From positions 1-29,906 of IMG/VR virus record IMGVR_UViG_2778261574_000001: DNA of 29,906 nt. One strand, given 5' to 3'. A program made the position numbers and the translations under genes. A model generated the notes under the pieces. The model was not told the origin of the DNA and searched no databases. It saw nothing but the letters and a program-made list of their open reading frames with translations. The stretch comes from a virus. Taxonomy: Duplodnaviria > Heunggongvirae > Uroviricota > Caudoviricetes. Within the stretch, counting starts at the first letter, position 1, and each line of letters opens with the position of its first letter. Shown here piece by piece: positions 12,601 through 28,340 of the stretch.

Positions 12601-13443
12601 TCATGCACGATCATTTGACTCAGCATCTGCTGCACGCTTGCTGCGCGAAGATGCACTTTTACTATCAATCTTTCGACAGTTCTTTCTATCCCTGGCTTCA
12701 TTTTCTTTAAATTTGTTATATGTCTCAGTATCAAAAAACGAAATTGTTTCAACCTCATCTTTTGGTATGAGCACACGGAAATCTTCGATATTAAGCCGAG
12801 ACATTCCACTTATCACACCACTATCAAGATAATGTTGGTGATAGTTAGTCGTGATACTAATCGTTAGATCATCTTTATCCCGATATCCGCTTAACATCGG
12901 GAGAAGTTCAAGGTGCTCTGAAAGCCCGTTTTCTAACGCCGGACAAGTAACAAGACCAACATAGATTTTGCGAGACGACAGAGTTGCTATGATCGGAAAC
13001 TGTCTTGCGGACGCTTCCATGAGTAATGATTCGAAAGCGTTATTACCTACAGCTTTAGCTAAGGCATCCCAGCGACGATCTCCACGTGATGTGCGTAACT
13101 TATTTCCAAAACCTGAAATCGCAGCGAGGACAATTGAAATCATAACCCATGCTATCTGTTTGATTTCATTTATTCTTTGAAGTTTGTCTTTCGATGAAGA
13201 CAACATGCCATTAAAACTGTCAGGTGTTAGATTCAAGGCATTAGCCAGCCAACGAAACCCTCCGCTGACGTTCAAAATAAAGGTGAAAAAACCGCCAAGG
13301 AGAAAAAAAACGATACCCCAGGCAGCCACAAAAAAATAAGCGTCCCAGCCGTTGGAACGCTTATATCGGTATCTTGTTGAAAGTGATAGGTTTACATAAA
13401 TAAAACCACTAACCAAAATCACTGCTAAAAGTAATGTTGCCAT
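12601..13443 (-). CDS. Hypothetical membrane protein: three N-terminal TM helices plus a ~170-aa soluble C-terminal domain; cargo gene in the P2 old/tin hotspot
   Basis: 280 aa. Predicted TM helices: ATLLLAVILVSGFIYVNL, AYFFVAAWGIVFFLLGGFFTFILNV, IAWVMISIVLAAISGF. ATG at 13441-13443 overlaps the upstream gene stop (TAATG). Region is visibly AT-rich relative to the phage backbone (by eye). No family recognised. Confidence 0.7.
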   Translation of the reverse strand: MATLLLAVILVSGFIYVNLSLSTRYRYKRSNGWDAYFFVAAWGIVFFLLGGFFTFILNVSGGFRWLANALNLTPDSFNGMLSSSKDKLQRINEIKQIAWVMISIVLAAISGFGNKLRTSRGDRRWDALAKAVGNNAFESLLMEASARQFPIIATLSSRKIYVGLVTCPALENGLSEHLELLPMLSGYRDKDDLTISITTNYHQHYLDSGVISGMSRLNIEDFRVLIPKDEVETISFFDTETYNKFKENEARDRKNCRKIDSKSASSRSKRAADAESNDRA

Positions 13444-13658
13444 TATCTGGTTCTATTAGTTTTCTCTTTTACAGTGCTCGTTTTGATGCCTTCAAGCTTA
13501 TCCATCTGTGCCTTGATGGCATCCATTGCTCTTTTGTTAGACAAGTCTACGGACACAAAACCATCTTTACTAAGATTGAGTTTGTCCTGGTTCTCTTTAA
13601 GAACCCTTGCCAGACGTTCAACTGGGTTACCCAGGCTAAATGCGGCGATGCTTGACAT
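13443..13658 (-). CDS. Hypothetical small protein (71 aa), first gene of the two-gene cargo cassette
   Basis: ATG at 13656-13658 preceded by a strong SD (AAGGGGGAG, 4-nt spacer); charged, probably helical; translationally coupled to the downstream membrane protein. Confidence 0.65.
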   Translation of the reverse strand: MSSIAAFSLGNPVERLARVLKENQDKLNLSKDGFVSVDLSNKRAMDAIKAQMDKLEGIKTSTVKEKTNRTR

Positions 13659-13928
13659 AACTCCCCCTTTTCACATGGCGCGGAAGTCTACACTCCGACG
13701 CCTACAACCTCAACAGATTATCTTTAAAATTTAGACAACAATATCATCTGTTGATTGCGTTACTTAAACTTAAGTTCAATGCGCTCGATCATGCAAGCTG
13801 TTTCTTAAGAACTGTTAATTTCCTGGCATATATAGTGGTTAAGGTAACAAATTGACACTAACGCCTCGCATAGCTCGTTGTTCAACCTTGCTGACGCCAG
13901 AAGCAAGTTCAGACGCCAGCAACGTTTC

Positions 13929-14162
13929 TTAATGCAGCCAGCTGTCGTCTTCCCACACCTTCTGCATAATTTTCATCACTTGTTTTCTTTCTTCGTCCAG
14001 CTGCAATCCGGTCAGTTCCACACCGTTAGAGCTACCTTTGCGGATACGAATTACCGTTTTGGGATACAGAGGACGCAGATTGCGGTAAAGCTCGGATTCA
14101 AGGGCGTCCAGGGTAGACTGGCTAATCTTCTGCTCTTTATCGATCATTATTTCAATGCGCAT
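13929..14162 (-). CDS. DinI-family protein (186 Tum C-terminal-domain-like)
   Basis: 77 aa, MRIEIMIDKEQKISQSTLDALESELYRNLRPLYPKTVIRIRKGSSNGVELTGLQLDEERKQVMKIMQKVWEDDSWLH; co-linear with E. coli DinI (MRIEV...WESADDW). Confidence 0.85.
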   Translation of the reverse strand: MRIEIMIDKEQKISQSTLDALESELYRNLRPLYPKTVIRIRKGSSNGVELTGLQLDEERKQVMKIMQKVWEDDSWLH

Positions 14163-14173
14163 AAAAAGTCACC

Positions 14174-14362
14174 TCAACTGATGACATCCATTGAGCGGTT
14201 GTATTCGTGGGTTCTGATTTTTGCCATGAGTTCATCTGTTAGTTCAGAAACCCACTGCAAAGCCAGCCCCTTCTCTTCATCACTACACTCACTAGCCGCT
14301 ACAAGCTTAAGAAAAAAATCAATGCGCTGGAGCTTCAAAGACTCCAAAAAATAGTCCTGCAT
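14174..14362 (-). CDS. Small hypothetical protein upstream of the DinI-like gene (possible N-terminal part of a Tum-like antirepressor)
   Basis: 62 aa; ATG at 14360-14362 with a strong SD (AGGAGG); lies directly downstream of the LexA box and promoter. Confidence 0.55.
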   Translation of the reverse strand: MQDYFLESLKLQRIDFFLKLVAASECSDEEKGLALQWVSELTDELMAKIRTHEYNRSMDVIS

Positions 14363-14403
14363 CTTTCCTCCTATGACACCAAAGCAATACTGTAAATATA
14401 ACC

Positions 14404-14421
14404 ACTGTTTATATTTACAGT
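14404..14421 (-). promoter_or_regulatory. LexA (SOS) box overlapping a sigma70-like promoter for the 62-aa/DinI-like operon
   Basis: aCTGTttatatttACAGt = CTGT-N8-ACAG with AT-rich spacer, about 17/20 match to the LexA consensus TACTGTATATATATACAGTA; minus-strand TTTACA and TATACT hexamers flank it. Confidence 0.6.
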
Positions 14422-14514
14422 ATATAATAATCTTACTGATGTAAAACGTTTTTTTATGTTCATCAGCCTGATATGCCTGGTATTATTAAGAGCACGAATT
14501 GTTAACCCGCGTAA

Positions 14515-16929
14515 TTAATACAGGTTTCGCCACTTATCATCTTCCTGCAAACGCTGGTTCCGATAGAAGATACGCAGGCCTGCTCCTGACGGAATACTGC
14601 CGCCGCGAAGGAGTAAATCGACCTCTTTCTCGCTACCATCAAATCCTCTGGACTTCAGCTCATAGACGAGCTGCTGTCGCTGATGGTCTGTAATTCGCTG
14701 TTTGTAGTCTTTACGCCGTTTCGGTTTAACCAGGCGTAACCTTGCTGCCAGTTCCCGGCGCTCTTTTTTGCTCATACTGTGCAGGTAATCGTGCAACTGC
14801 TTGTCATCCATGCGGGTAATGTCCGTTCTGGTGCCCCCATCAGCTGATTTATCTTTCTCCTGTTGGTTCAAATTTTCAGCAAGGGGACAGTTATTGCCAC
14901 GAGTCCAAGGGGCGCAAGCGCCCTGGTCGGCTGCCGCCTCCTGAACGTCAACGGCCTTACGAACCATTTTCCACTTCACGGCATGAGTGCAGATCTTGCC
15001 CTCTGCAATGGGTGACCAGATGCCATAAATACGAATACCGTGATCGCCATAGGCGGTCGGCTCTTCGTTAATTTCATAAGCTGTTCTGATAAGGTGATAT
15101 TTGCGGGGAACCAGCACGCCGCCCTGCTTCATGATGTAGGTGGCAAAACAGCCAGCATCAGCAGCAGCCAGAATGGCATCAAGACGCGGGTTATCCAGTA
15201 CCGGCGCACCTGCTTTTTTGTCACCCTGTTGCCTTGCCGCCTGACCAGCCAGCAAGCGAAGTTCACGATAAGCCTGACGCCCCGGAATACCAAAGAAGCG
15301 GAATTGCTGAACACGATGCAGAGACGCCCAGGCATTCACGTATTCAGCGTTATCACGCAGAGATTTACCCGTTTCCTTGCTGATCTCGCCAGCCAGACCA
15401 CGACCGTCAATGTTCTTACTGATATATTTCGCGATGTAGCTTGTCGGCGTTCCTTTGCGCGGGTTAATCAACTCAGACTTAAAGCGCGGCCCAGTGTTAT
15501 TGCCCAGCTCCTCGCGGTCTTCACGGATGGCAAACTTACGCAGTAATGCAGTAATGGCACGGCGGTCTTTTTTGCGCATGAAACACAACAGGTGCCAGTG
15601 AACTGTGCCGTCATGATGCGGCTCAGCCACCCGCACGCCATACCAGCGCAACCCGGCTTTGTGCATCGCCTTACGAAATGCAGCAAACATGCCGACCAGA
15701 TAATCGCTGCTTTGTCTTACCGTCGCATTTGTCCAGGTTGGGTTTGGTCTGCCGTTATTGAGCGTGGAATGGAAACGTGACGGACAGGTAATGGTGTAGA
15801 AAACGGCGCAGTCACCGCGCATTTCCGCGATAAGCTCCAGACCTTTAACACAGGCCATCATCTCATTGCGGCGGTGCGCCGGGTTGCTGCTGCTGGCGTT
15901 TACCACGTCTTCCATATCCAGCGTGTCGCCCTCTTCGTTCACCAGTTCATGAGAACGGAAAAACTCCAGTGACTTGCGGCGCTGCTCACGTTTATGCATC
16001 ACGGCTTCATAGCTGACATAGGGAGATGCTTTTTTGCTGACCAGGCAGACAGCACGCAACTGCTCTTCCCGCCATTCGCAACGCATTTTCCATAATTTCC
16101 GGTACCACCAGTCGGCGCACAACATACGCGCCAGCGAACCCGGAATGAGTTCATAGGGCACGGGTTTACGGCGGTTTCTTTTCCGACGGAGTTGCTCAAA
16201 CGCAGGCGGGATGACATCCAGACGCAGGGTTTCCGCTGCCACCTTTTCCCATGTCTTGCGGATTTCTTCTGGCTTAACGTCATCGGTGGCATACAAATCA
16301 CCACAAGCTGCATCAAGGCACATGCTCATATGCGCAGCGACAAGGGTAGACAGGCGTTTCACCTGATCCTGACTCATTTCAGGCAGAATCAGCAGGCCGT
16401 CCAGCCCTACATGGCTTGCCATAAAACGAAAAGATGCAGATAGCTGGCTGTCGCGTACATGCTCCAGTCGTTCCAGACATGGCTTAATCGTCTCACGTAA
16501 ATAGCGGGAATAAGCCTTTGGCCTGCCCAGGCTGCTGAAGTATTCAATACGTTGCATCAGCGGCTTGCTGATATGGGAGGGCTGGGCGCTGACGTCTGCC
16601 AGAATGACCATGTCCGGGTTAAAACGCTGCTGCTCATGCGCCAACTTTGCCCGGCTAATGAGCTTATCCTGCTCTATTTCGCGTTGGACAGGATCACGGG
16701 ATTCATTAAAGAAATAACGCTCCCAGACCTGATCACTCAGTGCCTCGCGGCGCAGTTGTTCCTGCTCGTTATCGGCAGCGTACAGAGTGATCAGGTTTGA
16801 AAGCGCAGAAACCGGCGCAACTTCCGCCGGGTCCAGATAAGGGTTAATGGCCTTTTTCGGGCTGTTCCATGAGAACGATGCGGCAGCCTCGTTAAAGCCG
16901 CAGCAGTTGCTCATATCGGCATGGCTCAT
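14515..16929 (-). CDS. A: Replication initiation protein A (rolling-circle nickase, P2 gpA family)
   Basis: 804 aa, [37 protein letters not shown]...; P2 gene A family, of which P2 A is about 761 aa; ATG at 16927-16929. Confidence 0.95.
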
Positions 16930-17783
16930 GCACGTACTCCGTACACGGCAGAACTATCCACGCCACGCGAATAATCAAATCCCACCCAGCAGCGCGGCCC
17001 GGAAACAGCAATGATTTCTGTTGCTGATTTACTCTCACCAGCTGCTACGCCGATGCTGCGTTTTACCTTGATATAGTGGTGAGTAAAATTGCGATACAGC
17101 GAACGGATCAGGGATGTGTCACTGTTAGAAACAATGACCGGATGTCCTTCTGATGACCGATGTTCAAGAACGGATGCCAGGTGATACTGGTCATCTTCAG
17201 TAAAGCCGTCAGCGTGATAGCCGGAAAACGTACCGTCATAAGGCGGATCGCAATACACCACATCCCCCGCCTTCAACATCGCCAGCGTTTCATCAAAGCT
17301 GGCGCAGATAAACGTTGCTCGCTGGGCTTTTTCTGCAAAAGCGCGAATTTCTTTTTCAGGGAAATACGGATTTTTATAATTACCGTAGGGAATGTTGAAA
17401 TGCCCGCTCTTGTTATAGCGACATAACCCACGGTAACCGTGACGATTGAGATACAGGAAATATACCGCTTTCATGAAATCAGTAATTTCAGTTGAGTAAT
17501 TAAACTCCTGCCTTATGTTGTAATAAGCCACCTCCCTGTTTGCGATCTCAAATAAAACTTTGGCGCGAGATATAAACGATTCACAATCAGCGGCAACCTT
17601 TTTATAGAGGTTGATTAAATCAGGATTAATATCCGCAACCAGATAGCAGGGATAATCCGTCTCCATCATCACAGCACAGGAACCCGCGAAAGGTTCAACT
17701 AGTCGCGGACCAGCAGGAAGATGTTTTTTCAGTTCGGATATTACGGCGGTTTTATTTCCCGCCCATTTCAGGATGGTGCTCAT
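16926..17783 (-). CDS. dam: DNA adenine methyltransferase (Dam family), orphan
   Basis: ORF track 16926..17843; I start at ATG 17781-17783 ([38 protein letters not shown]...), preceded by GGAGG; DPPY motif present ([10 protein letters not shown]); stop overlaps the gene A start. Confidence 0.9.
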
Positions 17784-18007
17784 ACAGCACCTCCGTTGTA
17801 ATGTTTGCCTTTCAGCTCTGCGATTTCCTGACAGGTAATGCAAAGCTGCACACCCGGAATGGCACGGCGGCGTGCTGGCGGAATTGGCGCTTCACACTCA
17901 ACGCAAAGCTCGCGGGACACGCCCGGCGTTTTGGCACGGGCAGCACGGATATGGCGCTGGCGTTCTTCTTCAACGCGCTGCTGTACGAGATCCATTGCAT
18001 CAGCCAT
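17780..18007 (-). CDS. TraR/DksA-family C4 zinc-finger protein
   Basis: 75 aa with CVECEAPIPPARRRAIPGVQLCITCQ (C-x2-C ... C-x2-C); P2-like phages carry a TraR-like ORF just upstream of gene A. Confidence 0.75.
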   Translation of the reverse strand: MADAMDLVQQRVEEERQRHIRAARAKTPGVSRELCVECEAPIPPARRRAIPGVQLCITCQEIAELKGKHYNGGAV

Positions 18008-19980: not shown

Positions 19981-20613
19981 ATGATACAGGTAAAAGCTGG
20001 CGAGAATACAGGGGGAAGAGAGGCTATCCATAGACTAATGGCAGCCTATGATTTCAAGTCCAGACAGCAACTTTGCGATCACTTAGGCGCATCAAAAAGC
20101 ACTATGGCAAACAGATACTTAAGAGATAGCTTTCCCGCAGAGTGGGTGATTCAGTGCGCCTTGGAAACAGGAGTTTCTTTACTGTGGCTAACCACCGGAC
20201 AAGGCGAGCCAGGTTCAAACATTGACCCTAAAAAAAATATCAATTCTGTGAACTCCAGCAGGGTTAAACCTCTTTCTGAGCTTGTATCTCCTGAAATTGA
20301 CAAGGCAACTCTCAACGGTGGTTTATTGGTCGATGCTGGAAAAGCAATCATTGATAGCAGCATACTCCCCTCAGACTCAAGCAACCTGCTGCTGGTGAGT
20401 ACTTCTGGTGATTCTTATTTAATAGATCGCAACCAAACACCACCAGTAAATGGTACGTGGTTAGTGGACATCGACGGGATAAAAAGCATTGTAAAATTGA
20501 CACGACTCCCGGGAAACAGATTAGTAGTGCATCAGGATGATTCATCGTTTGAGTGCGAACTGGATGACATTGAGGTAATAGGTCGCGCACTGAAAATTAT
20601 TAAGAGCCTTTGA
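19981..20613 (+). CDS. cI: Immunity repressor, CI-type (186 CI-like size class: N-terminal HTH plus C-terminal domain)
   Basis: 210 aa, ATG at 19981 with AGGA upstream; transcribed toward int as the P2 C/186 cI gene is; N-terminal region HTH-like (...QQLCDHLGASKSTMANRYLRDS...). Confidence 0.7.
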   Translation: MIQVKAGENTGGREAIHRLMAAYDFKSRQQLCDHLGASKSTMANRYLRDSFPAEWVIQCALETGVSLLWLTTGQGEPGSNIDPKKNINSVNSSRVKPLSELVSPEIDKATLNGGLLVDAGKAIIDSSILPSDSSNLLLVSTSGDSYLIDRNQTPPVNGTWLVDIDGIKSIVKLTRLPGNRLVVHQDDSSFECELDDIEVIGRALKIIKSL

Positions 20614-21962: not shown

Positions 21963-24900
21963 TCAGAACGACCAGTTCACACCAGCTACCCCGTTCCACG
22001 GGGATTCCACACCGGCACCATGGCTATACCCCACCCCAAGATGCCCGCTTAACGTACTGCTGAATGAGGCTTTAATACCTGCCTGGTATATTCCACGTCT
22101 GCCCGACAAATCATTGACGAAATTACCGTCACTATTCACTTTCACCCGGTTATCATCGACAAATTCTTTGCGCACAGCCGCCTTCAGCCACGGCTCAACT
22201 TCCATACCGTTCCCCAGACGCATGTTGTAACTCAGCGTTGCACCCAGTTCACGATATAAACTGCGGGTATCGACTGATTTCGATTCCATGCCATTGGATA
22301 AATGATATTCAGGGTTATCAGCGGTGAACCCCCGTTAACGATGCATACGGCGTCAGGTTCCAGTTACCATCGGTAAATCGCATCCCGGTTTCAATGTGAC
22401 CGCCCAGCCCGTTGCTGCGATAACTGCCGTTGGCGGCTCCACCGCTGCCAACCGTGGAGTCGCGAGCTTCGGTACCTGCTAATACCAATAAATTATCGCC
22501 ATTTTCCAGCAACATATTGGTCGCTAAATTGCCGGAAATGGAAAAAGTGCCGTACTGGTGAGTACCGCTGATTTCAATACCGTTAGCCGTGCTCGTCTGG
22601 AGAGCGGCACCGCTGTTCTGGACGATATCTGTCGCTTTGCCATTATCGTTAACTGTCAGCGTACCGCCTTCATTGATCTTTGTTTTTATTGCCTCTCCGT
22701 TAGCTGAAACTGTTTGTATTCCGCCGTCGTTAATCGTTGTCTCATTCGCCACCCCCTCGACGATTTGTTCGCCGCCGGTGAGCGTCGTGCCTGTCGCAGT
22801 GGCTTTTGTTTTGACGATCTCCCGTCCGCCCGTATTGACCTGTGTTTTGTCAGAAGAGGTGTCTGACTCCATGGTTAACACGCCGCCATTTGCCAGCAGG
22901 ATATTGTTCGCCGCACCCTGCTCGATGCTGAACGCGACGCCATCCGCGCGTGTTCCTGTGACCCGCGTCGCCCTGGTGGTTGCAACCAAAGCGTCCTGGC
23001 TACTCTGCTGTATCCCCGTTGCGCTGCCTTTCTCCCGCACATCGAGTGTGCCGCCGTCATTAAGCACCGAGTTTTCAGCCAGACCGCCCTCATTAACTAC
23101 CTGTGAACACCCATTAATAATGGAACCTTCCGCTGTCCCGTTTGCCATAATTTGTTGTAGGCCAGAGACGATATCGGTATTGATTGCCTTACCATAATTC
23201 TGAACGGTTTGCGTGCCACCATTGATGTGTGTTTTCTCTGTTGACCCACCATCAACAATTTGTTCACCACTTTCGATATTTGCCTCAGTGGCTAATCCAT
23301 ATACCGTTTGCTTGCCACCTTTGATATTTGCTTTATCAGAAGTGGCACTGGCATATATTGTTTGGGTGCCAGCACTATTGAGTACAGTGCCAACATCTTT
23401 TCCATAAACATCCATTTTGCCGTTGGCATTAATAATCGTATCAACTGCCCGGGAACCAGTGACGACTGTTAATGAGCCAGCGTTTTCCAGCACTACATTT
23501 TTAGCTTCTGAATTCCTGATGTAGAAAGCATCACCATAACTGTTGATTCCTTCGATAAGGGTTCCGGAAGTTGTGGAAGCAATTAATGCGCCGCCGGATT
23601 GTTGCTCAACATGCTTAGCCTCACCACCGTCCTGAACCTCCAGAACGCCACCATTATTAAGTCTGGTGGTATCTGTTTTAGCCTCCTTCTGGACAATCAG
23701 CTTACCGCCAGCATCAACGGTAGTATTTTTCGCCGAGGTTTTAGCCACTACCGTCAGTTCGCCGGTATTTTCCAGCACAACATAATTAGCCTCCCCTCCG
23801 GTAATAGTGAAGTGAGAGAGCTTGTTGTATCCTTCAATATCAGTCCCTGCGCCCGTGTTGGCAACTAAAGCACTGCCCGTCTCCTGGTTAACCCCATGTG
23901 CAATACCACCGGTATAGACAATCAGCGAGCCTCCGGCGCTAATATTGCTGCCAGTTGCCGTACCATCTTTCTCAACAACCTGCCGGCTCCCGGAGGATAT
24001 AATTGTCGTGTCAGCTTTCCCGCCGCTCTTGATATTTTGCGTTCCGCCGTTGATATTGGTACCCGTGGCAATACCATGATTATTAATATTCTGTGTACCA
24101 CCATTGATTATGGTATTGGTCGCGTTTCCGGTAACATCCATTACCCCGCCGTTATCTATTCGGGTCGCATCAGCTTTAGCATTCGTTAAAACTGACATTG
24201 TTCCTTTATCTTTAATAATCGTCTTGTTTGCCGAACCATATGCGTTTATGTCTAAATGACCACCGTTTTCCAGCAACACATTGTCTGCCACGTGATTGCG
24301 GATGGAGAATGCACCTTCACTATTCGTACCGCTCACCGTCGTACCGTTAGTGTTTGTTTTTAAAATTGCACCATCGTGCTGGGTAACATTTGTTGCCGTA
24401 CCACCACTAACATCAAGCACGCCACCGGAATAAACTTCAATAACATCCGAGGAGCTGGTGTAATCAACAATTTGCGTACCACCAGAATAGATCTGAGTAT
24501 TTTTTGCCGTTGACTTATTATTCAGAGACTGAGTTCCACCTTCAATCGTCGTGTCCAGCGCATGGCTTTCATATACTCTTTGCTCACCGCCATTTTTAAT
24601 GGTGGTTGTTCCTACTGTGCTCTGTTCAACATACTGTCGTCCACCATTTATGATTGTGTTCGTTGCAATACTTCCTTGCGTGATGTCCTGATAACCGGAC
24701 TTATTTATCGTTGTACCATCAACATGCCCCTGAGTTGTTACTGTCTGCCCTCCACCATCAATGATGGTTCCATTCGCAGTCCCCCCACTTATGTGTGAAT
24801 TACCACCCTTAATTGTCGTTCCATTGCTGATACCACCTGTATAAACGTCCTGATTGCCACTGTCGATTATCGTACCGGTGGAAATGCCCCCGTCATGAAT

Positions 24901-25224
24901 TGTCTGTCTTCCTCCGTTAATGGTTGTATTATTAGCCTGCCCCACAAAATTGTTATGACTTCCTACATCTTGATATCCACCCGATTCAATAAGACTTCCA
25001 TTAGATACCCCGCCATGAACATTCTGCTGGCCATGGTTGATAATATGAGTGTTATTTGTTGTACCTCGTTCATCTACTCTTTGGCTGCCATCTACAGTCT
25101 CATCGTTTACCACACCAATAACATCAGGAGTGAAGGCCGTCATCCCAGGCGGGGCATATATCAAGGCAGATATCAATAAGGAAAGTACTGAGCGGCGACA
25201 ATAATGGGGACTGGTCCTGTTCAT
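21963..25224 (-). pseudogene. AIDA-I-type autotransporter adhesin, reading frame interrupted at a C5/G5 tract (two ORFs: 22318..25224 and 21963..22289)
   Basis: Signal peptide MNRTSPHYCRRSVLSLLISALIYAPPGMTA; long passenger of G/T/N-rich beta-helix repeats; C-terminal ORF ends in the barrel signature ...GVNWSF. Removing one base from the run at 22329-22333 joins the frames as ...TPYASLTG-FTADNPEYHLSNGMESKSVDTRSLYRELG.... Confidence 0.75.
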
Positions 25225-25630
25225 AAATTTCATCCTCTGAAAAGTGAATACTGAGTAGCGTTTAAGCGACCTTAGCTCTGCTGCAACATCAGCCCACAGG
25301 CACCAGACCAGGGGATTCATCCTGAAGAGACAGCGCAAGTGTATTGTGTTCACCGCTCATCAAAGACATCATGATGAAATGATGATATTCCACATAAGAA
25401 AGAAGCATTTTTTAAACGCAGTGCGCTGAAGTATGGTTGGATAAAAAAGTCAATCTATTCAGGGAATACGGGGGTATTCTTTTCTTTCGACAATCAGGCC
25501 GTCGGCAAAATAAAATGATTTACATAATCGTTTCTGATGAATATCTTCTGCTCACATAAAAATAACACAATAACTTTGAGATCGCAGATTCTTTTACTTT
25601 TACAGCATTCGTCCCCCCATTGTTGGGCAA

Positions 25631-28264: not shown

Positions 28265-28340
28265 TGGTGGCCCTTGCTGGACTTGAACCAGCGACCAAGC
28301 GATTATGAGTCGCCTGCTCTAACCACTGAGCTAAAGGGCC
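28265..28340 (-). tRNA. ileY: tRNA-Ile2 (anticodon CAU, lysidine-modified type), 76 nt with encoded CCA
   Basis: Minus strand GGCCCTTTAGCTCAGTGGTTAGAGCAGGCGACTCATAATCGCTTGGTCGCTGGTTCAAGTCCAGCAAGGGCCACCA folds into a cloverleaf (7-bp acceptor, D, anticodon loop CUCAUAA, T arm); near-identical to E. coli ileX/ileY as I recall. Anticodon alone cannot exclude tRNA-Met; the symbol is by synteny. Confidence 0.85.

Follow-up and report, generated by a model that had tools for sequence, protein, structure and literature searches.

On the minus strand of the window (the whole 29,906-nt stretch of DNA analysed here) we find a module which we judge, with a probability of roughly 0.8, to be an SOS (LexA)-controlled tumA–dinI induction operon in a P2-like E. 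coli prophage of the Fels-2/186 type. Replication gene A (14515..16929, minus strand; Pfam Phage_GPA, E = 1.6e-127) is the upstream neighbour, and 3′ of it follow, on the same strand, a promoter, a LexA box, then a strong ribosome-binding site and two open-reading frames, the first of 62 aa and the second, of the DinI family, of 77 aa. This order, with the module directly downstream of gene A and co-oriented with it, is common to phages 186, PSP3 and Fels-2, and with Salmonella phage Fels-2 the window shares 97.6% DNA identity from where gene A ends through to the stop codon of dinI. A search of 5426 complete E. coli genomes found part of the queried region in 1281, about a quarter. The kind of module and its gene arrangement are already known from 186, PSP3 and Fels-2 and are very common, and as both the principle and the arrangement have been described for these three phages, the finding is confirmatory; the present analysis adds a double LexA box of the colicin type, a covarying stem-loop after dinI, and a TumA type that tracks the N-terminal domain of the CI repressor.

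The promoter consists of a −35 hexamer TTTACA (14440..14445, minus strand), read from the sequence, and, after a 17-nt spacer, a −10 hexamer TACTGT (14417..14422, minus strand) with which LexA box 1 begins. The annotated −10 of the 186 SOS promoter p95 is likewise TACTGT and likewise the first 6 nt of a LexA box; it is this identity to the annotated p95 layout on which the assignment rests, and not a generic consensus promoter scan, which did not call the promoter because three of the six bases of TACTGT depart from TATAAT. LexA box 1 (TACTGTAAATATAAACAGTG; 14403..14422, minus strand; core CTG-N10-CAG at 14420..14405) agrees with the consensus TACTGTATATATATACAGTA at 17 of 20 positions, boxes being graded throughout by mismatch counts and those of ColE1 by published values. 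With its three mismatches it is the sole such consensus match in the window, none arose in 100 shuffles, and among the 13 occurrences of CTG-N10-CAG in the window it alone has an A+T-only spacer. The near-consensus LexA box and the overlapping sigma70-like promoter reported by the first-pass annotation are thus both confirmed, in the TTTACA-17-TACTGT layout of 186 p95. Box 1 is almost invariant among 50 operator variants, a LexA box lies at the equivalent place in 186, PSP3, SEN1 and ESSI-2-type phages, and the TumA-like open-reading frame is preceded by one in every relative examined. The diverged phages SEN8 and Kp ST437-OXA245phi4.1 keep TTTACA and the 17-nt spacing unchanged around a different spacer sequence, and with them the −10 and both LexA boxes, despite diverged flanks (dS 0.8-1.3). 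From this pattern we infer LexA control of the promoter.

A second, imperfect LexA box (CAGTGGTTATATTTACAGTA; 14388..14407, minus strand; core GTG-N10-CAG, 14405..14390) follows the first, the 16-bp cores of the two overlapping by 1 bp; it had been missed in the first-pass annotation. It begins GTG where the consensus has CTG, its half-sites are conserved with variation greatest at the two central spacer positions, and it is retained in SEN8 and Kp ST437phi4.1 but absent in 186, PSP3 and ESSI-2. In ColE1 cea the SOS box nearer the gene is the same as box 2 but for one spacer position, and the Fels-2 version matches that ColE1 box exactly. Over the whole double operator 30 of 35 positions match ColE1 cea and 31 of 35 a Klebsiella Col plasmid, and a 41-nt operator query matches 923 plasmid records. 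The colicin operons (ColE1 cea and Klebsiella Col-type bacteriocin plasmids) share with the prophage the two LexA boxes, their 1-bp overlap and the non-consensus GTGG left half in box 2; on the Col plasmids, however, the −10 hexamer precedes both boxes, whereas in the prophage box 1 contains it, and the likeness ends at the operator edges, the regulated genes being unrelated. Two LexA dimers occupy the double boxes of colicin operons (PMC2994835), and the conservation pattern suggests that the prophage operator would be occupied by two dimers as well. The near-identity with Col plasmids possibly reflects the exchange of a regulatory cassette between these plasmids and phages; a literature text search with the operator sequence returned nothing relevant.

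Four nucleotides after a Shine-Dalgarno AGGAGG (14367..14372, minus strand), which is conserved in related loci, starts the 62-aa tumA-like open-reading frame (14174..14362, minus strand; ATG start), assigned from PHROG profiles as a probable antirepressor of the prophage CI. It matches phrog_698 (3.6e-38), phrog_8554 (2.4e-8) and phrog_1993 (2.2e-3), and the N-terminal half of 186 Tum matches the same three families in the same register (phrog_698 5.9e-6, phrog_8554 3.4e-12, phrog_1993 1.5e-23), the last of which includes PSP3 TumA as a member. An hhalign comparison with the 186 Tum N-half pairs residues 4-43 with 4-43 (P = 0.0018), with a probability of only 14.8%, and BLASTP found no similarity to either 186 Tum or PSP3 TumA. 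By these matches the 62-aa frame is a remote homologue of the Tum N-half, at profile level only. The Tum-like antirepressor module proposed in the first-pass annotation accordingly stands as regards its position after gene A, its LexA-boxed promoter and its PHROG links to Tum, and fails to find support in BLASTP, which is silent for the 62-aa frame against 186 Tum. The protein is 98.4% identical to Fels-2 STM2728, has 484 homologues across Enterobacterales, and evolves under purifying selection (dN/dS 0.08-0.09). The literature credits 186 Tum with antirepressor activity, and PSP3 is reported to carry this activity in its upstream gene (personal communication cited in Lemire et al. 2011, PMC3121763). 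The 62-aa frame, rather than the DinI-like one, is the likely antirepressor here.

The presumed target of this protein is a 210-aa CI repressor (19981..20613, plus strand) with Phage_CI_repr and Phage_CI_C domains. It is of the 186 type, with 32% identity to the CI of that phage (E = 2e-34), in agreement with the 186-sized CI-type repressor of the first-pass annotation. A domain search found no S24 peptidase (autocleavage) domain in it, and a CI of this type cannot sense RecA itself, so that an antirepressor is needed. Across 12 related phages, similarity in TumA tracks CI residues 38-75 and not the CI C-terminal domain: near-identical TumA proteins are paired with CI proteins only 38-58% identical overall, and in Fels-2 the CI is 58% identical to ours over its length but 95% identical at residues 38-75. 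Covariation of TumA with the whole CI protein was rejected because identical TumA occurs with CI of 38-58% identity, while the narrower form, with the CI N-terminal domain, fits; a strict one-to-one pairing therefore exists only at the level of that domain.

It is conceivable that the 62-aa protein is no antirepressor at all and that the operon is an SOS accessory module, pairing a DinI-like RecA modulator with a small protein of another function, in a prophage whose induction is otherwise driven or absent. Such a reading draws on BLASTP finding no likeness to the Tum and TumA proteins on which experiments have been done, on the protein having no Pfam or NCBIfam match and an empty PDB sequence search, and on the label ‘levan regulatory protein’ which some records give it. 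We consider it unlikely, as the profile matches to the Tum N-half families are reciprocal and in register, the position and LexA-boxed promoter are those of 186 and PSP3, the CI without an autocleavage domain needs an antirepressor, and the literature treats Fels-2 as 186-like in regulation (PMC3121763).

The second gene of the operon is a 77-aa dinI-like open-reading frame (tumB; 13929..14162, minus strand), a probable modulator of RecA filaments. The DinI-family frame expected after the 62-aa one was borne out by a match to Pfam DinI PF06183 (E = 6.6e-23, score 81.3 bits, gathering cut-off 24.2, residues 14-76), and the whole protein can be aligned with 1GHH, the E. coli DinI structure (residues 1-77). 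It is 100% identical to Fels-2 STM2726.1, 78% to PSP3 TumB and 41% to residues 71-145 of 186 Tum, with a dN/dS of 0.07-0.08 that again indicates purifying selection. Against NCBIfam NF007893, the equivalog model of the host DinI, it scores 42.7 bits, below the cut-off of 111; judged by these scores it is a phage DinI-like protein and not an orthologue of chromosomal DinI.

Among known systems Fels-2 is the closest: its STM2728 and STM2726.1 share with the prophage not only their protein sequences but also the same promoter, and a double operator different at 1 of 35 positions. The differences are that the host here is E. coli, that the downstream cargo is another, and that one extra T at the junction of the two frames makes an 11-nt gap out of 10. 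Fels-2 STM2726-STM2728 were induced 2.6- to 14.8-fold by the DNA-damaging mutagen MX, and STM2727 heads the LexA-regulon table of that study (PMC2225428). STM2726.1 appears as STM2727 in the same LT2-based work. The SOS operon of 186 (p95, tum, orf97) resembles ours in following gene A in the same orientation, in the −10 TACTGT inside a LexA box, in the DinI-like part, in an N-half homologous at profile level, in a CI of the same family and in a downstream accessory gene on the same transcript; it differs in its fused 146-aa Tum with internal starts, an N-half diverged beyond BLASTP detection, in having one LexA box only, and in t95a, a partial terminator of canonical form. PSP3, whose tumA/tumB are annotated ‘UV induction of prophage’, likewise has two genes, a closely similar TumB and the same covarying hairpin after tumB, but its TumA falls in phrog_1993 with no BLASTP similarity to ours, its two frames are in frame and 3 nt apart, and it has a single LexA box (19/20). 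More distantly, the dinI-antirepressor operons of the Gifsy phages and Fels-1 are also LexA-repressed and also encode a DinI homologue together with a small antirepressor, which inactivates a non-cleaved repressor, yet these phages are lambdoid, their gene order begins with dinI and their antirepressor belongs to an unrelated family (PMC3121763).

Beyond dinI lies a conserved stem-loop (13884..13926, minus strand) that starts 3 nt past the dinI stop and has no U-tract after it. Its minimum free energy is −23.5 kcal/mol (z = −4.6); in 17 distinct variants, PSP3 included, 9 of its 17 pairs carry compensatory changes and 89.6% of cells are paired, against 27-54% with the partners slid, and a search of Rfam at gathering and permissive thresholds gave no match. 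It is followed by a conserved boundary motif (GGTTGAACAACGAG..GCGAGGCGTTAG; 13858..13883, minus strand) past which the cargo differs from one related locus to the next; against phages of E. coli and Klebsiella with other cargo, homology stops at ~13858. The cargo here comprises a 71-aa open-reading frame (13658..13443, minus strand) and a 280-aa one with a hydrophobic-rich N-terminal part (13443..12601, minus strand), each in a PHROG family of unknown function and with no Pfam, PADLOC or NCBIfam match. Its position corresponds to the P2 gpA-gpQ hotspot (PMC9122126); a text search of two papers on this hotspot, PMC9122126 among them, found no mention of LexA, SOS, Tum or DinI.

Read-through from the SOS operon into the co-oriented cargo (12601..13658) is plausible and has a precedent, and there are two broader proposals. 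The first is that the double operator of Fels-2-type P2-like prophages would act as a late, threshold-like SOS switch which, through a leaky or regulated barrier formed by the hairpin without a U-tract, would make variable cargo of the gpA-gpQ defence hotspot subject to DNA damage across many E. coli strains; we offer this tentatively and hold it to be doubtful. The second, which we regard as very improbable, makes the variable cargo, such as defence or exclusion genes, the chief client of the LexA promoter under DNA damage, with prophage induction secondary. It can point to 186, where the p95 transcript passes the partial terminator t95a into orf97 and plasmid-expressed orf97 blocks 186 infection, to the absence of a canonical terminator after dinI, to the co-induction by MX of the Fels-2 downstream gene STM2726, and to the first large downstream open-reading frame being co-oriented in ~22 of the 32 cargo clusters where such a frame was called. 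The Fels-2 co-induction, however, may stem from prophage replication, and in about a third of clusters (e.g. SEN8 and Kp ST437phi4.1) the first large frame lies on the opposite strand; moreover, the hairpin between dinI and the cargo is strong and conserved, and the 270-nt spacer with its conserved blocks leaves room for a separate promoter.

Returning to the tumA–dinI induction operon, its division into two genes is itself a conserved form. Where the 186-type tum operon encodes a fused polypeptide of ~146 aa, there are here two open-reading frames, and the sizes first noted (62 + 77 aa, an 11-nt gap, different frames, together nearly as long as 186 Tum with its 146 aa) proved correct. The first-pass annotation proposed an alignment to 186 Tum as a check for a frameshift that had split one ancestral gene; the split is instead a conserved two-gene arrangement and no recent frameshift, both frames having a dN/dS of ~0.08. 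A frame of ~60 aa upstream of a 77-aa DinI-like one, behind one LexA-boxed promoter, is the split tumA/tumB arrangement; Fels-2 and PSP3 are described as carrying the 186 tum split into tumA, the antirepressor, and tumB, the DinI homologue (Lemire et al. 2011, PMC3121763). The GenBank notes of PSP3 agree on a split tum and an antirepressor. A literature text search on TumA/TumB returned unrelated papers only. The primary paper on Fels-2 tum is reportedly Bunny et al. 2002. A terminator-like hairpin at the tumA-dinI junction (14185..14168) is probably a chance structure, because it is not conserved in diverged relatives. That the two frames are what remains of a 186-type tum after a frameshift or stop codon disrupted it, with SOS inducibility lost, is suggested by their summed size, gap and differing frames and is nevertheless scarcely credible, given that both are under selection at dS 0.8-1.3, that each has its own ribosome-binding site, that the two-gene form recurs in Fels-2, PSP3, SEN1, SEN8 and Klebsiella phages, that DinI is intact in 78 of 80 IMG/VR loci (a scan confined to loci with identical TumA, which informs on operator and cargo diversity and not on protein divergence), that ESSI-2-type phages have the TumA-like frame alone, that homologues of the 186 Tum N-half are mostly stand-alone proteins of 63-91 aa, and that 186 itself has an annotated Tum95.5, from an internal GTG start, which is the DinI-like part alone.

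Under the induction-operon reading, host LexA would sit on the tandem operator in the undamaged cell, where box 1 holds the −10 hexamer and box 2 lies at about the expected transcription start, and would keep the promoter off. Upon DNA damage, RecA-stimulated self-cleavage of LexA would free the promoter and yield one transcript encoding two proteins. The TumA-like protein would then bind CI, probably at its N-terminal DNA-binding domain, and take it off its operators, upon which the lytic promoter would fire and the prophage be induced, while the DinI-like TumB may bind RecA filaments and modulate the SOS signal. From a double operator of the colicin type, very tight repression and a late, threshold-like induction would be expected. 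The module would in this way account for the response to DNA damage (e.g. by fluoroquinolones or mitomycin C) of a P2-family prophage whose repressor is non-cleavable, and, as about one complete E. coli genome in four contains part of the queried region, it is relevant to how prophages are induced and genes transferred in this species.

The whole module lies on the minus strand, 3′ of the 804-aa gene A ORF (both strands were read), which encodes the P2/186 replication protein A (14515..16929; Pfam Phage_GPA, E = 1.6e-127). Its promoter has a -35 hexamer TTTACA (14445..14440), a 17-nt spacer and a -10 hexamer TACTGT (14422..14417), overlapped by LexA box 1, TACTGTAAATATAAACAGTG (14422..14403), a 20-mer with three mismatches to the LexA consensus. 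A Shine-Dalgarno-type AGGAGG (14372..14367) precedes a 62-aa tumA-like ORF (14362..14174), followed after an 11-nt gap by a 77-aa tumB/dinI-like ORF (14162..13929; DinI PF06183, E = 6.6e-23). Box 1 is the sole site in the window with three or fewer mismatches (none arose in 100 shuffles), and among the 13 matches to CTG-N10-CAG in the window it alone has an A+T-only spacer. A generic promoter scan did not flag this promoter because TACTGT matches TATAAT poorly; in coliphage 186 the same hexamer is the annotated -10 of the SOS promoter p95 and likewise makes up the first six nucleotides of a LexA box. The arrangement described in the first-pass annotation, a near-consensus LexA box over a promoter driving a 62-aa ORF and then a DinI-family ORF, is confirmed in every detail.

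We identify this module as the LexA-repressed tumA-tumB (dinI) operon for induction of a Fels-2-like prophage. Its DNA, taken from where gene A ends to the dinI stop, shares 97.6% identity with Salmonella phage Fels-2; of the two proteins, the 62-aa one is 98.4% identical to Fels-2 STM2728 and the 77-aa one 100% identical to STM2726.1. Fels-2 STM2727, the name of STM2726.1 in an LT2-based study, tops the LexA-regulon table of Salmonella TA100, where the mutagen MX induced it 5.5- to 14.8-fold, and STM2726-STM2728 were all three induced by MX at p < 0.05 (PMC2225428). Lemire et al. (PMC3121763), who cite Bunny et al. 2002, describe tum of Fels-2 and PSP3 as divided into two genes, with the antirepressor activity in the upstream gene of PSP3. 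Many P2-like phages of Klebsiella, Salmonella and Escherichia have the same module, and 1281 of 5426 complete E. coli genomes contain part of a 2.1-kb query. Several public records name the 62-aa ORF a 'levan regulatory (domain) protein', a name without any support here and apparently a misannotation passed from record to record.

The remainder of the early region is also 186-like, with CI then Int, an Apl-like ORF, CII and Fil, and a Dam methylase then gene A. The methylase gene (16926..17843, minus strand) is D12-class and lies in the early operon just 5′ of gene A, an arrangement shared with Fels-2. On the far side of the integrase gene, a 1011-aa ORF (22318..25353, minus strand) with nine stretches of AIDA-type autotransporter adhesin repeats and a tRNA-Met gene (28265..28340, minus strand) are presumably host flank. 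CI (19981..20613, plus strand; Phage_CI_repr and Phage_CI_C) shares 32% identity with 186 CI (E = 2e-34); a domain search found no S24 autocleavage domain in it, and it would therefore not respond directly to RecA. Homology, CI type and the literature all support the earlier interpretation of 186-style SOS induction, which is not new: for this phage group the operon is of a textbook kind and already established biology.

Both ORFs had been proposed for alignment to 186 Tum, which is 146 aa long. For the 77-aa ORF this holds directly, at 41% identity to Tum residues 71-145 (E = 3e-24), and it also aligns full-length to the E. coli DinI structure 1GHH. For the 62-aa ORF, BLASTP found no similarity to 186 Tum, but profiles did relate the two: the ORF and Tum residues 1-70 both match phrog_698 (3.6e-38 and 5.9e-6), phrog_8554 (2.4e-8 and 3.4e-12) and phrog_1993 (2.2e-3 and 1.5e-23), all three in the same register, and PSP3 TumA is itself a phrog_1993 member (2.7e-32). 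Alignment of the 62-aa family with the Tum N-half family by hhalign paired residues 4-43 with 4-43 (P = 0.0018), and by eye a core of Cys, then L/I-A-L, then a short hydrophobic/acidic stretch is common to Fels-2-, 186-, PSP3- and ESSI2-type sequences.

The two ORFs do not look like the product of a recent frameshift in one ancestral tum, as each has its own ribosome-binding site and both show dN/dS of 0.07-0.09 (dS 0.8-1.3) against SEN8 and Klebsiella phage ST437-OXA245phi4.1. DinI is intact in 78 of 80 IMG/VR loci, PSP3 is annotated with a tumA ('similar to 5' end 186 tum; UV induction of prophage') and tumB pair, and most database homologues of the 186 Tum N-half are stand-alone proteins of 63-91 aa. 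Even 186 is annotated with an internal GTG start, Tum95.5, from which only the DinI-like part is made. Separate genes are therefore the usual state and the one under selection, with the fusion in 186 apparently exceptional. In ESSI-2-type phages a TumA-like ORF preceded by a LexA box lies directly 3′ of gene A, with no DinI gene and with the portal region next (1501..1713 in L085, about 1490..1670 in L086); to judge from these phages the DinI part seems dispensable for the module. In Escherichia phage 500465-1 (L092 1399..2031) TumA is locally scrambled, the dinI frame is disrupted near its start and IS elements are adjacent, and the module appears to be decaying.

Near-identical TumA proteins occur with CI proteins just 38-58% identical overall, the divergence being located in the linker and C-terminal domain. 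Identity to the window across CI residues 38-75 is 71-95% in phages with Fels-2-type TumA, 58-61% with ESSI2-type TumA (itself 41-49% identical) and 45-47% with PSP3-type and 186-type TumA. The C-terminal domain is 24-51% identical throughout, with no gradient by TumA type, and among the phages with near-identical TumA (from a comparison of the window CI with those of L094-L103) it is 31-51% identical, as diverged as that of 186. The pattern, a correlation seen in 12 related phages, would fit an action of TumA on the CI DNA-binding domain. Conserved residues 38-75 beside such diverged C-terminal domains suggest mosaic evolution of CI.

The tum promoter carries a second, imperfect LexA box, CAGTGGTTATATTTACAGTA (14407..14388, minus strand), whose 16-bp core shares one base with that of box 1. 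The 35-nt double box (14388..14422) matches the ColE1 cea operator (L088 5061..5095) at 30 of 35 positions and a Klebsiella Col-type bacteriocin plasmid (L089 1229..1267) at 31; the Fels-2 double box matches the same plasmid at 32 of 35, and Fels-2 box 2 is identical to the gene-proximal ColE1 box. The non-consensus GTGG of box 2 also occurs in colicin/bacteriocin operators, and the likeness ends at the operator edges. A 41-nt operator query matched 923 plasmid records; of the 25 that were listed, seven long records (45 kb to 5.4 Mb) come first, followed by 18 smaller ones (9-34 kb, mostly near 9.3 kb). One of the smaller records (H143) is a mobilizable ColRNAI plasmid with the match 43 nt 5′ of a colicin-like bacteriocin gene. 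The half-sites are conserved in a set of 50 operator variants, which differ most at the two centre positions of the box 2 spacer, as expected for a dimer-bound site. The double box is retained in SEN8 and Kp ST437phi4.1 despite diverged flanking bases; 186, PSP3, SEN1 and ESSI-2-type phages have one LexA box only. Either shared ancestry or convergence could account for the colicin likeness. The literature searched does not mention the double operator, and no novelty is claimed for it.

A strong stem-loop (13926..13884, minus strand; -23.5 kcal/mol, z = -4.6) starts 3 nt past the dinI stop, at the place of the 186 partial terminator t95a, and no U-tract follows it. Compensatory changes affect 9 of its 17 pairs across 17 distinct variants including PSP3, and 89.6% of cells are paired versus 27-54% in slid controls; no Rfam family matched. 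On its 3′ side a conserved motif, GGTTGAACAACGAG..GCGAGGCGTTAG (minus strand), runs to about 13858, the edge of the variable cargo region, beyond which related loci diverge.

The cargo lies in the gpA-gpQ defence hotspot known from P2-like phages (PMC9122126); neither of two P2-hotspot papers searched, this one included, mentions LexA, SOS, Tum or DinI. Among 63 loci with identical TumA there are 39 different cargo clusters; of the 32 clusters with a large ORF called, about 22 have the first such ORF in the orientation of the operon. Here the cargo (12601..13658, minus strand) consists of two overlapping ORFs of 71 aa and 280 aa, the longer one hydrophobic in its N-terminal part; they match PHROG 9843 and 3630, both of unknown function, and neither has a Pfam, PADLOC or NCBIfam match. 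The pair also occurs beside a TIR-domain gene in Klebsiella phage ST15-OXA48phi14.1, and among the 1281 E. coli genomes with part of the module query only 52 have it; it may be an uncharacterised system for defence or exclusion. Inside the 280-aa ORF, about 80 nt past its start on the coding strand, a terminator-like hairpin (13336..13364, minus strand; 12-bp stem then T7) could be chance or an internal attenuator.

Read-through from the SOS promoter into this cargo is possible by analogy, 186 orf97 offering one precedent for read-through from the tum promoter and co-induction of Fels-2 STM2726 a second. The 270-nt dinI-cargo spacer (13660..13860, minus strand) and its counterpart in a Klebsiella relative (L093 2170..2378) share conserved blocks in otherwise diverged sequence, CACTATATATGC, the palindromic GAACTTAAGTTTAAGTAACGCAA and AGTGTAGACTTCCGCGCC; none fits the sigma-70 consensus, and the cargo may have its own promoter or operator in them. 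To the known biology of these prophages the analysis adds a little: the double operator of colicin type, the covarying hairpin at the cargo boundary and a possible SOS connection of the defence hotspot.
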